Assembly (NCBI GenBank): GCA_965223265.1
Contig: OZ244999.1
Coordinates: 5,440,001-5,504,000 of the forward strand
From: Planctomycetota bacterium
Lineage (GTDB): Bacteria > Planctomycetota > UBA8108 > SXIK01
Length of the DNA: 64,000 nucleotides
Reading direction: 5' to 3'
The stretch's first letter is position 1; each line of letters opens with the position of its first letter. The position numbers and the translations under genes are program-made. A model generated the notes under the pieces. That model was not told the origin of the DNA and made no database searches. It saw only the letters and a program-made list of their open reading frames with translations. This document shows, in pieces, positions 41,076-64,000 of the stretch.

Positions 41076-41131
41076 AGAGACCGCGCGCGCTGCTGGTCGC
41101 TTTCCGTGAGGGCTGCGGAGTAGGACGCTTT

Positions 41132-41227
41132 GCGTTTGCGTTTGCGTTTGCGTTTGCGTTTGCGTGGGCGTTTGCGTGGGCGTTTGCATTTGCGTTTGCG
41201 TTTGCGTTTGCGTGGGCGTGGGCGTCT
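41132..41227 (+). repeat. Composite hexamer microsatellite B (16 units GCGTTT/GCGTGG, ending GCGTCT)
   Basis: Seen directly; abuts a REP. Confidence 0.92.
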
Positions 41228-41234
41228 CTCTAAG

Positions 41235-41598
41235 GTAGCAGGCACACTCTGTGTGCCGTCGCCCGAAAGACGACAGATCGGACGATGCGCGGCGAGACTG
41301 TGAGCTTTCTAGAAGATGCTGCCGCAACCGCAACTCGCGGTCACGTCCGGACCGTCACGTCCGGATCGCACGCCGCCGTGCACCGACGCCACGAAAACCG
41401 GACGGCACACGGAGAAGCTGTGAATTCTTTAGAACGTGCCGTCGCACCTCACGGTCACGGTCCACGGTCACGGTCACGTCCGGACGGCACACGGAGTGTG
41501 CCTGCTACTTTAGGAGACGCGCTCGCTCACGCTCACAAGAACGGATGGCACACGGAGCAGGGCTGTAAAGATTCACAGCCTCGGCGTGTGCCTGCTAC
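41235..41598. repeat. GTAG-family REP cluster (REPIN/BIME-like)
   Basis: GTAGCAGGCACACTCTGTGTGCCGTC at 41235-41260, inverted copy at 41483-41508, loop-interrupted copies at about 41401-41443 and 41544-41598. Confidence 0.88.
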
Positions 41599-41623
41599 TT
41601 TGAAGACGGCGCGCGCGCTTCGA

Positions 41624-61001: not shown

Positions 61002-61112
61002 CGTGCGACGTGAGGCGATCGCAAATGAGCCACAAGATGCCGGCGGTGCGATCCTTGTATGCCGCGACGCAGCAGCAGACGACGCACCCGACGACCGAGG
61101 AACTCGCTGATC

Positions 61113-62366
61113 ATGGCCACTGAATCGATCGACACCGCGTCCGGCGGCGCGCGCCGCTGGTACGAGCGCATCGGCCCAGGCATCATCACCGCCTGCGTCG
61201 TCATCGGCCCAGGAAGTATTCTGACAAGCTCGAAGACGGGTGCAGCCCACGGTTACTCGTTGGCGTGGGTTGTTGCTGCAGCCGTCGTTTTCATGCTCGT
61301 CTTCATGACACTTGGCGCCAAACTCGGCGTCATCGCGGGCACCTCGCCGGGCGACCTCATCAGAGCACGAGGAGGACGCCCTCTCGCGATCCTGATCGGC
61401 GTCGGAATCTTCATGATCTCGGCCGGCTTTCAGTTCGGCAACAATCTGGGCGTGCACTCTGCCTTTGCGGCGCTTGGATTGGAATGGGACTATACGGCGG
61501 TCGCGTTCAATGCTGTTTCGATTCTGTTTCTTTTCGGCTTCAAGAATCTCTATCGTGCTGTTGAACGCCTGATGATGGGGCTGGTCGGACTGATGCTCCT
61601 GTCGTTCGTCATCAACCTCATATTCGCCAAGCCGCACCTCGGCGAGTTGGCTGCAGGCTTTCTCCCAGGTCGCACGAAAATTGACATCACCCTCCTTGGA
61701 CTCGTCGGCACGACATTCGTCGTCTCAGCGGGGTACTTTCAGGCTTTTCTCGTGCAGCAGAAAGGCTGGGGGAAGCCTGAGCTACGCAGCGGACTGCTGG
61801 ACGCTCGCGTCGGTTCGGTGATCATGGCGCTCATCACGCTGATGCTGATGTGGACTGCAGCGGCCGGTCTGCGTAACGAGTCGCTCAACAACGTCGAAGA
61901 AGTCGCGCAAGGGCTCAACCCACTCTTCGGCGGTTGGGGTCAGCCCATCTTCTGCCTCGGACTCTTCTCTGCTGCCTATTCTTCCTTCCTGGTGAACTCG
62001 ATGATCGGTGGGTTCATTCTGTCGGACGGACTGGGCTTAGGCTCGAAGCCAACGGACCGCTGGCCACGTTTGTTCACCGTCTTCGTTCTGCTCACCGGCA
62101 TGTTCATCGCGCTCTACGCGATCAAATCAGGAACGCGCCCAGTCGCCGCGATCGTGACAGCACAGGCGCTGACGGTCATTGCCTCACCGCTCGCCGCCGG
62201 CGCGCTTCTGTGGCTAACCAACCGACGCGACGTCATGGGGGAGGAGCGCAACGGCCCGCTCCTCAACATTCTCGGCGGCCTGGGATTCCTCATTCTCCTG
62301 GCCATGGCGTGGCGGACGGCCGCGTACAACGTGTGGCCGGCGATCGCGGCTTGGCTTGAGGGCTAG
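61113..62366 (+). CDS. NRAMP-family divalent metal transporter
   Basis: IGPGIITACVVIGPGS, FQFGN, LVGTT, about 11 TM helices. Confidence 0.9.
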   Translation: MATESIDTASGGARRWYERIGPGIITACVVIGPGSILTSSKTGAAHGYSLAWVVAAAVVFMLVFMTLGAKLGVIAGTSPGDLIRARGGRPLAILIGVGIFMISAGFQFGNNLGVHSAFAALGLEWDYTAVAFNAVSILFLFGFKNLYRAVERLMMGLVGLMLLSFVINLIFAKPHLGELAAGFLPGRTKIDITLLGLVGTTFVVSAGYFQAFLVQQKGWGKPELRSGLLDARVGSVIMALITLMLMWTAAAGLRNESLNNVEEVAQGLNPLFGGWGQPIFCLGLFSAAYSSFLVNSMIGGFILSDGLGLGSKPTDRWPRLFTVFVLLTGMFIALYAIKSGTRPVAAIVTAQALTVIASPLAAGALLWLTNRRDVMGEERNGPLLNILGGLGFLILLAMAWRTAAYNVWPAIAAWLEG

Positions 62367-62386
62367 TCCCAGGACGAAGAACGGCC

Positions 62387-62553
62387 GCGTTTGCGTTTGC
62401 GTTTGCGTTTGCGTTTGCGTTTGCGTTTGCGTTTGCGTTTGCGTTTGCGTTTGCGTTTGCGTTTGCGTTTGCGTTTGCGTGGCCGTGGCCGTGACCGTGA
62501 CCGTGACCGTGACCGTGACCGTGACCGTGACCGTGGGCGCGCGCCTCTGTCTC
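62387..62553 (+). repeat. Composite hexamer microsatellite C: (GCGTTT)15 GCGTGG CCGTGG (CCGTGA)7 CCGTGG plus GCCTCTGTCTC tail
   Basis: Seen directly. Confidence 0.95.
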
Positions 62554-62555
62554 AA

Positions 62556-62593
62556 GCCCGCCGTGTTGCACATGCACGGCGGGCCCGAGGCCC
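62556..62593. terminator. GC-rich hairpin(s) at the 3' end of the four-helix-bundle gene
   Basis: GCCCGCCGTG / CACGGCGGGC 10-bp perfect stem; no U-tract. Confidence 0.5.
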
Positions 62594-62598
62594 CTGCG

Positions 62599-62922
62599 TC
62601 AGTGCGTCAGCTTCCAGAGCATCGCCTGCAGCGCATCGACGTCCGCAAGTACCGAGTCGATTTGCGACGCATCGATATAGCCCCATGCCGCAGCAACCTT
62701 GAGCGCCGTGCGCACCTCTTCAGCGCTACCTGAGGCAACGCGCCAAAGATGCCCGCGGTCGCGACCTTGACGCCGATTGCCCTCAGCAAGGTTGAGTGCC
62801 ACGGACGAACCGGCATCGCGCAGCTGAGCGGCAAGCTTTGAGTCGTGACGACGGATACTCGAGACGAGGGGTCGCAGCTGACGAACTATGCTAAAAGTGT
62901 GATCCAGAGCGAGAAAGCCCAT
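62599..62922 (-). CDS. Four helix bundle protein (TIGR02436 / 23S-IVP / Avd-like fold)
   Basis: LAAQLRDAGSSVALNLAEG...VASGSAEE...WGY...MLWKL; GGAG RBS 7 nt before ATG. Confidence 0.93.
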   Translation of the reverse strand: MGFLALDHTFSIVRQLRPLVSSIRRHDSKLAAQLRDAGSSVALNLAEGNRRQGRDRGHLWRVASGSAEEVRTALKVAAAWGYIDASQIDSVLADVDALQAMLWKLTH

Positions 62923-62989
62923 GTGTGACTCCGGTAACGGCCCAGTGAATTGTCGCCGACGCCCGACGCGGCGGCGTTTCACTGCCGCC

Positions 62990-63073
62990 AACCGAACGAG
63001 AGACGGGGTCAAGGGCGCGAAGCGCCGAGCGCAGCGAGGGCACCCTTGAGGCCGGCTCTCGTTCGGTTACGAT
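62990..63073 (+). promoter_or_regulatory. Long hairpin, candidate ssDNA (Frpo-like) promoter for the four-helix-bundle gene
   Basis: AACCGAACGAGAG (62990-63002) pairs with CTCTCGTTCGGTT (63056-63068); TCAAGGG/CCCTTGA inner stem; TTGAGG-16nt-TACGAT on the 3' arm. Confidence 0.65.
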
Positions 63074-63152
63074 CGACAAAACCGCCGACGCACGCACGCC
63101 TGAAGCAGCAGAGCTCTTCTCTGCCCTCGGCTCGAGCGCCGCTACCGCGCAC

Positions 63153-63410
63153 CGGTTTGCGTTTGCGTTCGCGTTTGCGAGGGAGTGGGAGTGGAGTACT
63201 CCGTCTCTGTCTCTGTCTCCGCCTCTGTCTCCGCCTCTGTCTCCGTCTCCGCCTCGGTCTCCGTCTCCGTCTCCGTCTCGGTCTCCGTCTCGGTCTCGGT
63301 CTCCGTCTCGGTCTCCGTCTCCGCCTCTGTCTCCGTCTCCGTCTCCGCCTCTGTCTCCGTCTCCGTCTCCGCCTCTGTCTCTGTCTCCGTCTCCGTCTCT
63401 GTTTCTGACT
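63153..63410 (+). repeat. Composite hexamer microsatellite D: GCGTTT block, GAGTGG block, GGAGTACTCC, then about 34 CCGTCT/CTGTCT/CCGCCT/CGGTCT units
   Basis: Seen directly. Confidence 0.95.
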
Positions 63411-63464
63411 CTTCCTCTATCCAATCTCCACGCTCCCCCCTAAAGCCCCAGCCCGACGAAAGAC

Positions 63465-64000
63465 TCAGATAAAGTCCAGCGCGCAAAGGTGGTCGAAATA
63501 CGCGTTCTTGTTGCCGCTGTCCTTTTGGCCGCAGACGCGCATGATCTCTGCGTAGGCTTGATGCAGGCGCGAGCTCGAAGCGCGGATCGCTTCGTGCTGT
63601 CGCATGGTGGGTCCCGGCTGGTAGTCGAAGTGCTGCCGAACCCCCGAGGCGTTCCAATCGGCGAAGTACCTTCCTTGCGCTTCGATGGCTTCGACGACGA
63701 GTCGGTGGGCTTTCTGGAGAGAGGCAGGGGCGTTGAGGCGGCGCAACTCCTTCAGCACGGAATCGATTTCCGTCTGATACTGCTCAAAAGGCTGCCCACG
63801 GCGACCTCGCGACTGAAAGTAGCGCAGGGTGGCAACACGCGCCACCATAGCGTGATCGACGAGCGTAAAGAAGCGATGGAGGAACGCCTTACTCCCATCA
63901 TCGAGGCGCGCACCTTGACTGCGAAAGGTGGTTTGCCGGTGAGGGATCGCACGGTAGGCCTCGGAAATCGCCATTGGCCCTCGCGCGTTGACAAGCATGG
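63465..64000 (-). CDS. Hypothetical protein (5' end may lie outside the window)
   Basis: Open frame to the window edge, helical, ends DHLCALDFI. Confidence 0.7.
   Translation of the reverse strand, partial: MLVNARGPMAISEAYRAIPHRQTTFRSQGARLDDGSKAFLHRFFTLVDHAMVARVATLRYFQSRGRRGQPFEQYQTEIDSVLKELRRLNAPASLQKAHRLVVEAIEAQGRYFADWNASGVRQHFDYQPGPTMRQHEAIRASSSRLHQAYAEIMRVCGQKDSGNKNAYFDHLCALDFI

Follow-up and report, generated by a model that had tools for sequence, protein, structure and literature searches.

A multicopy four-helix-bundle mini-gene unit with a putative RNA leader and flanking hexamer arrays in a Planctomycetota genome

Background

The subject of this study is a cassette of about 1 kb (positions 62387-63410) within a stretch of 64,000 nucleotides from the genome of a Planctomycetota bacterium (assembly GCA_965223265.1, contig OZ244999.1). 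The stretch, which corresponds to G000:C1:5440001-5504000 in our numbering, is referred to below as the window; the genome itself, G000, consists of one contig of 9.18 Mb with a GC content of 60.8%. The cassette is built around a gene for a 107-aa protein with a predicted four-helix-bundle (4HB) fold. The protein belongs to PF05635/TIGR02436, a very large family for which we know of no established function outside the diversity-generating retroelements (DGRs). In an earlier note on the sequence of the window, the cassette was put forward as a self-contained module that is expressed from single-stranded DNA (ssDNA) via a promoter hairpin. The comparisons described here identify it as one of many copies of a conserved unit in G000, and point to a leader that acts as RNA.

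Results and discussion

Organization of the cassette

The proposed order of array C, GC hairpin, 107-aa gene on the minus strand, large hairpin and array D, over about 1 kb, was recovered in full with every part in its place. Read along the minus strand, the order is arrays, leader hairpin, open reading frame (ORF), GC hairpin and arrays. Two classes of hexamer array were distinguished in A-poor orientation, namely class I (GCGTKK) and class II (CTCYGY). The features, with positions in the window, are as follows:

61059-62366, plus strand: NRAMP metal transporter gene, the left neighbour (Pfam Nramp, 210.9 bits), 3' end towards the cassette
62387-62480, no strand: class I hexamer array (GCGTTT)x15.7, downstream in gene sense (Tandem Repeats Finder (TRF), 100% matches, score 188)
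62478-62535, no strand: hexamer array (CGTGGC/CGTGAC)x9.7, running on from the (GCGTTT) array (TRF, 98% matches)
62536-62556, minus strand: short class II-like tail, in gene sense CTTGAGACAGAGGCGCGCGCC, right after the terminator-like hairpin (from the sequence)
62557-62583, minus strand: terminator-like GC hairpin CCCGCCGTG/CACGGCGGG (stem of 9 bp, T tract weak), 15 nt beyond the stop codon
62574-63124, minus strand: DNA homology with other A-type units, ~550 bp (blastn of a sister copy: 5503124-5502574, 82.5% identity)
62599-62922, minus strand: gene of the 107-aa 4HB protein, A-type paralog, stop codon included (ORF and profile matches)
62929-62932, minus strand: GGAG motif resembling a Shine-Dalgarno sequence, 6 nt ahead of the ATG (columns invariant in leader alignment A1)
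62943-62983, minus strand: alternative 3' hairpin CAGUGAA...UUCACUG (minimum free energy fold)
62962-63093, minus strand: leader rod with helices P1-P4, 131 model positions (137.6 bits with the covariance model); the large hairpin corresponds to its apical part, 62990-63068
63107-63125, minus strand: small hairpin GCAGAG..CTCTGC, found in subgroup A1 only, where the conserved unit has its 5' edge (sequence comparison and fold)
63155-63196, no strand: short class I array, GTTTGC x4.2 (63155-63179) followed by GGGAGT-type units (TRF and sequence)
63199-63399, no strand: class II array of CTCCGT/CTCTGT/CTCGGT/CGCCTC hexamers, a 12/18-nt compound, x16.8 as 12-mers, upstream in gene sense (TRF score 269)
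63465-63998, minus strand: hypothetical gene of 177 aa, the right neighbour (ORF), 3' end towards the cassette

The genes in the neighbourhood resemble those of planctomycetes. The NRAMP gene and the 177-aa gene are convergent, so that the cassette is located between two 3' ends. The product of the 177-aa gene has no Pfam or NCBIfam match and was not found in five relatives. The homology between units ends where the arrays start, as judged by a blastn search of the sister copy against the genome, and all repeat tracts lie outside the ORF, the nearest upstream tract beginning ~230 nt ahead of the ATG. The comparison with phase-variable contingency loci, in which a tract within the ORF or between promoter elements switches expression when its unit number changes, covered the first of these two placements. 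A GTAC junction is found at 63196-63199, and the succession class II-GTAC-class I recurs at other loci. On the plus strand the flanking arrays contain 0% and 5% A (T fractions of 0.00 and 0.05 in gene sense), and the description of both as A-poor on that strand therefore holds. The GC hairpin downstream of the gene (62557-62583) was not called in a scan for consensus terminators. The 17 A copies compared all have a conserved hairpin in the corresponding position, and each also carries the GA-rich tail behind it. A search with Rfam 15 yielded nothing at threshold within 62300-63500, the best matches being chance-level miRNA models of at most 21 bits.

The arrays do not appear to be mere assembly artefacts. 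Short-read contigs from four runs (two samples of one study) continue for ~30 nt into array C and restart just past array D, which implies that the arrays exist in those reads, their lengths being beyond what such contigs can check. Joints at which the read contigs skip 109, 540 and 132 nt have short sides; we read these as paralogous copies, such as the hairpin-less copy at 5176314, and not as alleles.

The 4HB protein and its paralogs

The protein of the window matches the Pfam family 23S_rRNA_IVP (PF05635) with 57.4 bits (cut-off 33.8) and TIGR02436 with 59.5 bits (cut-off 24). In total, 39 PF05635 matches were found in G000, of which 36 score above the cut-off. The self-contained module of the earlier note thus recurs as 36 intact copies, each of exactly 107 aa, which constitute two paralog families that are ~48% identical to each other: 17 copies are of type A (the window copy included) and 19 of type B. 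Three further copies are broken.

The AlphaFold2 (AF2) model of the window protein (predicted local distance difference test, pLDDT, 94.6) consists of four helices (residues 4-24, 28-49, 53-80 and 85-106). It superimposes with a TM-score of 0.88 on 2GSC (XCC0516), of 0.86 on 2RLD (BT_0352) and of 0.84-0.86 on the Avd proteins of DGRs, which confirms the Avd-like fold that had been proposed, at a sequence identity to Avd of 11-12%. A phmmer comparison with 2gsc_A gave an E-value of 1.8e-6. The motif GxxRxxxSxxxNxxE is ascribed to the PF05635/TIGR02436 family in PMC3936711. Within this motif S40, N44 and E47 are invariant among the copies (alignment A2), and the motif Arg is an Asp in type A (D36) and an Arg in type B (R36), next to an invariant R35.

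Each copy is kept functional and the protein is under purifying selection: the pairwise dN/dS is 0.144 within type A (below 1 in 134 of 134 pairs) and 0.13 within type B (170 of 170 pairs), at a median dS among copies of 0.55-0.62. All copies are chromosomal. A tblastn search of plasmids at E 1e-8 gave no match, and neither the A nor the B proteins match a PADLOC or PHROG family. The conserved DNA unit measures ~550 bp by blastn, and the order of parts is common to all copies: array, leader of ~200 nt with hairpin, ORF, GC hairpin, short GA-rich tail, array. Divergent flanking genes are found at only 2 of the 32 4HB clusters, whereas 22% of the gaps between gene-like ORFs overall are divergent (based on crude gene calls).

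Association with hexamer arrays

TRF identified 422 merged arrays in G000 with a period that is a multiple of six, the main units being ACGCCC, AAACGC, ACACGC, ACAGAG and AGAGGC. Such an array is present within 500 bp, on at least one side, of 34 of the 39 PF05635 matches, while only ~5% of the genome is that close to one. For strictly A- or T-poor arrays the figures are 25 of the 39 matches versus 1.9% of the genome (binomial P 7e-31). Among the five matches that lack an array, two are copies that have been cut off from their array by a 2.7-kb insertion, a third is the B member of one A/B composite with the same 2.7-kb insertion, one has a flanking repeat of period 8 and one is a degenerate copy. 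The proposed test of co-occurrence therefore came out in favour of the association, as arrays and upstream hairpin track the gene throughout the genome and also in other phyla (see below).

The succession of array classes was analyzed with regular expressions over 279 clusters. Without a gene the clusters mostly read 'II' (105 times), 'II I' (31) or 'I' (27). With a gene they read 'II I A I' (four times, including the window), 'II A II I' (three) and 'II I B II I' (two), next to larger composites in which an A and a B gene face each other (A-> <-B). This grammar is insertion-like. The flanking arrays are direct at 10 of 17 loci and inverted at 1 of 17. Two other approaches were abandoned: the detection of arrays by A-free or T-free composition returned mostly chance runs, and an all-against-all clustering of array flanks was uninformative, as 298 of 518 flanks ended up in one component, probably because of residual short arrays.

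Some further properties of the arrays were recorded. One strand lacks A and the other lacks T in all class I and class II arrays, including those in 62387-63399 of the window, and all six frames are therefore free of stop codons. As a result, long spurious ORFs are reported across the arrays by ORF finders. According to crude gene calls, 62 of the regex-defined clusters are situated inside gene-like ORFs. No promoter-like hexamers were found in the arrays. A module of ~240 bp (motifs M3 and M4), located at G000:C1:9142046-9142290 and ~20 other places, separates the A gene from the B gene in the six A-> <-B composites and elsewhere occurs on its own near arrays. Finally, tandem units of ~115-137 bp adjoin arrays of GTGGGAGTCC-type 12-mers that precede some B units (7449671-7450395 and 8600609-8601064).

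A covarying rod upstream of the gene

To characterize the large hairpin, 30 leaders (16 A and 14 B) were aligned; six copies were omitted, one A copy with a deleted hairpin and five B copies with a replaced left arm. The leader forms a rod of four helices, in which 12 of the 35 base pairs show double changes, including 10 of the 13 pairs in helix 2. The fraction of paired cells is 97.7%, against 88.7% in shuffled alignments, and the covariation score is 0.272 against 0.117; in neither case did any of 500 shuffles reach the observed value. When the partners were slid by one to three columns, only 36-52% of the cells remained paired. The apical 45 nt are near-invariant across A, B and the copies of a second genome, G007 (see below).

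The two strands can be told apart by their mismatches, since a G·U pair on one strand is an A·C mismatch on the other. In gene sense we counted 107 G·U versus 9 A·C cells, and still 47 versus 9 after removal of two invariant U·G pairs that account for 60 of the 107. The tolerance of G·U but not of A·C indicates that the structure is selected on the sense strand of the gene. The calculated fold energy is -106.9 kcal/mol for the sense RNA and -98.8 kcal/mol for the antisense RNA. In addition, the strand CGCCGCCGC is used both by helix P1 and by the 3' hairpin near the GGAG motif, of which a GUGAAAC/GUUUCAC variant is found in other copies. The two structures are therefore mutually exclusive, and this alternative pairing suggests that the leader may function as a switch.

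With a covariance model of the rod, 40 sites were recovered in G000 and 13 sites in G007, whereas 19 further genomes from the same order gave no match. Only four of 39 leader cores in G000 lack an intact gene. The related genes of myxobacteria (see below) are preceded by a different rod of ~135 nt, the G000-type core being absent from their loci in an anchor search. In its basal helix GGCUCCUUU is paired with AAAGGAGCC. The latter is located just a few nt ahead of the ATG and includes the Shine-Dalgarno sequence, which is thus buried by the helix. The inner helices of this rod covary (20 sequences, four of which are misaligned, with the outer stem absent from the resulting consensus).

The earlier note had taken the large hairpin for an ssDNA-type promoter. 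No -35/-10 (sigma-70-like) promoter was found in 62200-63600. Together with the wobble on the sense strand, the covariation and the burial of the Shine-Dalgarno sequence in relatives, this leads us to read the hairpin as a putative RNA leader, i.e. a cis-acting structure in the mRNA, rather than as a promoter. Its role could be in the control of translation, in processing by RNase III or in the binding of the 4HB protein.

Distribution among other genomes

Three genomes of the same family contain no PF05635 at all. One of these, G001 (contig of 7.87 Mb), was compared directly with G000: no period-6 array was present in 520 kb, where equal samples of G000 contain 12.3 on average (5th percentile 5). 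Similarly, the sequence GCGTKK x5 is found in 651 windows of G000 and in none of 40 relatives. G007 belongs to a different family within the order; its 13-15 copies, a large number of which are at contig ends, have arrays of 6-7 nt and the G000-type leader.

A scan in which each species was represented by a single genome confirmed 283 relatives. From these the best 80 loci were kept, which come from ~37 assemblies by accession prefix. Most of these best 80 belong to Myxococcota (Anaeromyxobacter, Polyangiaceae, Haliangiales and Kofleriaceae), at 41-69% identity, and the closest named protein relatives among them are from metagenome-assembled genomes of Planctomycetota and Myxococcota. We found arrays (period up to 24, at most 450 bp upstream or 300 bp downstream) at 73 of these best 80 loci, and most of the seven loci without arrays are at contig ends. 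The repeats are concentrated around the gene: on the upstream side the coverage peaks at 30-50% between 100 and 400 bp and is under 2% at 700-1200 bp (0-2% at 800-1200 bp; 58 loci with full flanks), and on the downstream side it is 17-22% within the first 200 bp and 2-3% at 800-1200 bp (71 loci). These distant intervals serve as an internal control. The repeat unit itself varies between genomes and includes CCGCAG, GAGTCG, CCGTGG, CGGACT and others. The association of the gene with arrays, rod and terminator-like hairpin, first seen at a single locus, is thus a feature of two phyla, and the combination of array, rod and 4HB gene has the look of a selfish or mobile mini-element of a kind not described before.

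The comparison of the NRAMP-hypothetical junction with an empty allele, as had been suggested, came to nothing. Apart from the absence of the 177-aa gene in the five relatives, the NRAMP gene was found only in G005, at 53% identity and with no arrays alongside. An orthologous junction is lacking because the closest genomes have in common with G000 neither the element nor the genes next to it.

Turnover, REP-like hairpins and recombinase elements

The unit is subject to decay: one B copy is frameshifted, one leader is reduced to a half, and one A copy has lost everything from the rod to the last ten codons. Several units are bracketed by direct repeats of the local flank that include non-periodic class I/II junctions (36 nt at 94%, 64 nt at 89% and 120 nt at 83% identity), and a repetitive extragenic palindromic (REP) module is present on both sides of four B units. 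Bracketing repeats are what integration via array homology or a long target duplication would leave, and they prove neither.

REP-like elements, in which GTAG is followed by a palindrome, are abundant: with one mismatch allowed 407 cores were found in G000, of which 142 are within 300 bp of an array, a distance that covers 3.2% of the genome. The unit lives in a mosaic of intergenic repeats, made up of hexamer arrays and, in G000, of REP-like hairpins, while the window cassette itself contains no REP core. At G000:C1:4206500-4207700 (locus L041, 1120-2290) a Y1_Tnp-like ORF of 215 aa with an HVH motif (26.4 bits, cut-off 23) is followed by eight tandem REP units GGACGGCACAC..GTGTGCCTGCTAC, spaced by two or three CACGCA/CACGCT hexamers, and class I arrays may have been derived from such a REP flank.

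The gene-less arrays A, B and E of the window had been interpreted as empty sites or scars. This interpretation finds little support in the sequence, as there is no unit remnant at any of the three; REP-like hairpins are near B and E and none is near A. A clean excision could still have taken place at these arrays. As a separate observation, arrays B and E (window 41129-41620) lie amid REP-like hairpins in both orientations, e.g. GTAGCAGGCACACTCTGTGTGCC at ~41236, with inverted copies at ~41483-41520 and ~41575-41605, and form a cluster that resembles a bacterial interspersed mosaic element (BIME) and has no 4HB remnant.

The statement that no transposase or reverse transcriptase (RT) is nearby holds as far as the searches went. 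The nearest Y1_Tnp match, the one transposase family searched for around the window, is sub-threshold and ~19 kb away. RVT_1 matches in G000 number four (1895554, 3424405, 3516453 and 5913461, ~127.7 bits each), the nearest being ~410 kb from the cassette, and none is near any 4HB gene. L044, the one examined of the four, combines RVT_1 and GIIM domains with D1-D4 intron RNA upstream and is a group II intron.

A mobile element does make use of the leader as a DNA sequence. The 2.7-kb insertion mentioned above is an element of 2.72 kb that encodes a large serine recombinase of 702 aa (Resolvase, Recombinase and Zn_ribbon_recom domains) and is present in six copies with 100% amino acid identity (8597854-8600574 at L167, and ~2581199, 6779080, 7186136, 8835385 and 8979087). 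In every case the insertion point within the B-type leader is identical, immediately 5' of GTCAAG, both junctions are intact, and the displaced 5' part of the leader is found at the far end of the element, beside the array. As the host B units are only ~80% alike (estimated from overall identities), insertion at the same point implies that the leader core is read as a DNA target. It looks as if the element uses the palindrome of the leader as its attachment site. A different insertion of ~130 bp was observed between P1 and P2 in the leader upstream of copy g4913149m (G000:C1:4913600-4913760). It has terminal inverted repeats AGCCTGTTGAAAAAG ... CTTTTTCAACGGGCT with TTAAC on both sides, and looks like a miniature inverted-repeat transposable element.

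Polarity relative to replication

The cumulative GC skew turns at ~3.52 and ~7.95 Mb. Gene-like ORFs in general show no strand bias with respect to replication (883 of 1742, or 50.7%, are co-oriented). Among the 4HB genes, 16 of the 17 of type A are co-oriented with replication (p 3e-4) and 4 of the 19 of type B (p 0.011). Of 187 arrays, 134 have an A-poor strand that corresponds to the lagging-strand sequence (p 3e-9), a preference that is retained in the arrays more than 600 bp away from a 4HB gene (105 of 156), and the REP-like cores are biased as well (248 of 407). The polarity of genes, arrays and REP cores suggests that a process that sees single strands at the replication fork shapes the whole repeat system, be it by insertion, slippage or selection.

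Relation to known systems

The 23S rRNA intervening sequence (IVS) elements of Leptospira and Coxiella carry an ORF of the S23p/PF05635 family. The unit has in common with these the PF05635 protein, encoded by a small ORF in association with a long RNA stem; both, moreover, are patchily distributed and look selfish. At loci elsewhere, where 8 of 15 two-sided pairs of arrays are inverted, the arrays could even enclose the gene in a stem, as in an IVS. The differences are that the cassette is not in an rRNA gene but between the NRAMP and hypothetical genes, that its stem lies wholly upstream of the ORF rather than around it, that it has microsatellite flanks and that it is present in 36 copies.

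The similarity to Avd (PDB 4DWL and 8UB7) concerns the four-helix-bundle fold (TM-score 0.84-0.86); unlike in DGRs there is no DGR RT nearby, the comparison being one of protein fold and RT. PF05635 is described as the Pfam family most often found beside DGR RTs and treated as Avd-like (PMC10053308), as a visitor in cas loci (PMC3936711) and as present among strain-specific genes (PMC8700078), and neither Planctomycetota nor Myxococcota is mentioned in the accessible part of PMC12699852. In the literature covered, i.e. main texts outside the subscription journals, we found no link of the PF05635/TIGR02436 family to tandem repeats and no description of such a leader.

The resemblance to the REP/BIME systems with their REP-associated tyrosine transposases (RAYTs) lies in the intergenic mosaic of short modules, the GTAG-led palindromes, the Y1_Tnp-like gene by a REP cluster and the preference for 3' ends of genes. 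To our knowledge, BIMEs have not been described with a protein gene that has its own leader, nor with long hexamer arrays. The nearest known arrays are the short tandemly repeated repetitive (STRR) heptanucleotide sequences of filamentous cyanobacteria, which are intergenic, of unknown function and in some cases able to form hairpins (PMC2670836). They share the short period and the intergenic location with the arrays of G000, but have a period of 7, belong to another phylum and come without a reported link to a gene family. PF05635 genes are numerous in cyanobacteria. Finally, single-strand promoters of the Frpo/ssi type consist of a long imperfect hairpin upstream of a gene, in which the template strand must fold. 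The leader differs from these in that its stem contains no promoter hexamers, that the sense strand is the one that folds and that it occurs in many chromosomal copies.

Interpretation of the cassette

The explanation that we favour, with moderate confidence, is that the cassette is one copy of a selfish mini-gene unit of ~550 bp that multiplies by duplication, of which the leader acts as RNA and for which the arrays provide sites or homology for gain and loss. The rod would act in the mRNA and control translation or stability, perhaps via RNase III or via the protein itself, bound to the near-invariant apical 45 nt. The unit would enter and leave array-bearing intergenic sites by recombination, with the arrays as portable homology, either through gene conversion or through integration and excision of a circle. 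Afterwards the arrays would grow and diverge by slippage.

Several observations weigh against this explanation. The majority of the strict array clusters (128 of 150) have no 4HB gene within 500 bp, and 22 have one. The flanks of the window copy share just a 34-nt repeat that is largely periodic, and the point where the homology ends at the arrays may be the limit of selection and not that of a mobile unit. A median dS of ~0.55 means that most copies are old, with no recent burst. The 15 two-sided loci in other genomes have inverted arrays in 8 cases and direct arrays in 2, for which a simple insertion into one array is no explanation, and these loci are not independent, given that there are several per assembly and paralogs per genome. 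Neither a recombinase nor a circle, an empty allele or an insertion polymorphism turned up, relatives offered no orthologous empty site, and neither the recombination step nor movement of the unit was observed. The RNA role of the rod is deduced from sequence comparison.

One alternative is that the genes form a non-mobile family of the host, with a regulated leader, whose small products bind RNA or DNA; the arrays would be by-products of replication slippage or fork stalling beside highly structured intergenic DNA rich in terminators, or else spacers or insulators. Purifying selection on all 36 copies and their high dS, and thus age, fit such a family; so do arrays that lack stop codons in every frame and promoter-like hexamers, that retain their replication orientation when more than 600 bp from a 4HB gene and that mostly occur without one. 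We nevertheless consider it unlikely, as it hardly explains 36 near-equal copies scattered between unrelated genes, their absence from all three genomes of the same family and patchy presence over two phyla, the truncated and deleted copies, and the flank duplications that bracket units. Equally improbable in our view is that a recombinase in trans, either the large serine recombinase or a RAYT-like HUH enzyme, reads the dyad-symmetric leader core as a DNA site and moves or copies the units at the fork. The six serine-recombinase elements at one point of B-type leaders would agree with this, as would the Y1_Tnp-like ORF beside eight tandem REP units spaced by CACGCA-type hexamers, and the polarity of A genes, B genes, arrays and REP cores. 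For the serine-recombinase element, however, the leader is the target and nothing shows that it moved a 4HB unit; it was found at B-type leaders only and not near the A copy of the window. Furthermore, the tolerance of G·U and the compensatory changes indicate a folded single strand and not a duplex site, and the Y1_Tnp score is just 26.4 bits.

Copying via RNA is still less probable. In this scenario the Avd-like protein would bind its own mRNA (rod, ORF and terminator), an RT would be supplied in trans and the microsatellite ends would arise as in target-primed reverse transcription. It would account for a fold equal to that of Avd, which in DGRs is the accessory protein of the RT, and for a conserved unit that has the size of a transcript from rod base to terminator, and four group II intron RT copies are available in the genome. 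These intron maturases, however, are the only RTs and are not near any copy; the arrays are present on both sides and not just at the 3' end, the limits of homology could equally be limits of selection, and cDNA or junction evidence is lacking. The model of the earlier note, a module expressed from incoming or displaced single-stranded DNA via its hairpin, with a protein that anneals or builds the tracts, we regard as very improbable. It could appeal to the long hairpin upstream of the gene, to the strand asymmetry of the arrays and to the replication polarity, which suggests that ssDNA matters somewhere. Against it are the absence of -35/-10 matches in 62200-63600, the wobble pairs of the sense strand, which in the template strand would become A·C mismatches, and the rods of relatives that sequester the ribosome-binding site. 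Moreover, the copies are chromosomal and, in the searches described above, match no plasmid and no PHROG or PADLOC family.

Significance

The duplicative mini-gene unit that we favour could also be part of something larger, and we put this forward as a speculative extension that is unlikely to be right: a new class of selfish elements in Planctomycetota and Myxococcota that is characterized by an Avd-like protein, a rod-shaped leader RNA and microsatellite termini, in which the protein directs copying or integration and seeds or extends the tracts. If true, the protein, acting on its own RNA or on ssDNA repeats at the fork, would represent a guided form of mobility without a transposase, with telomere-like repeat ends.

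Apart from this, the rod is a candidate for a new cis-acting RNA motif, which comes in two versions. The unit with its arrays explains why many of these loci are at contig ends in draft assemblies. The PF05635/TIGR02436 family gains a reproducible genomic syntax, array-rod-ORF-terminator-array, across two phyla. This makes several questions testable, namely the role of free-standing Avd-like proteins, the build-up of hexamer arrays in some large GC-rich genomes and the way in which a mini-gene may spread without a transposase of its own.

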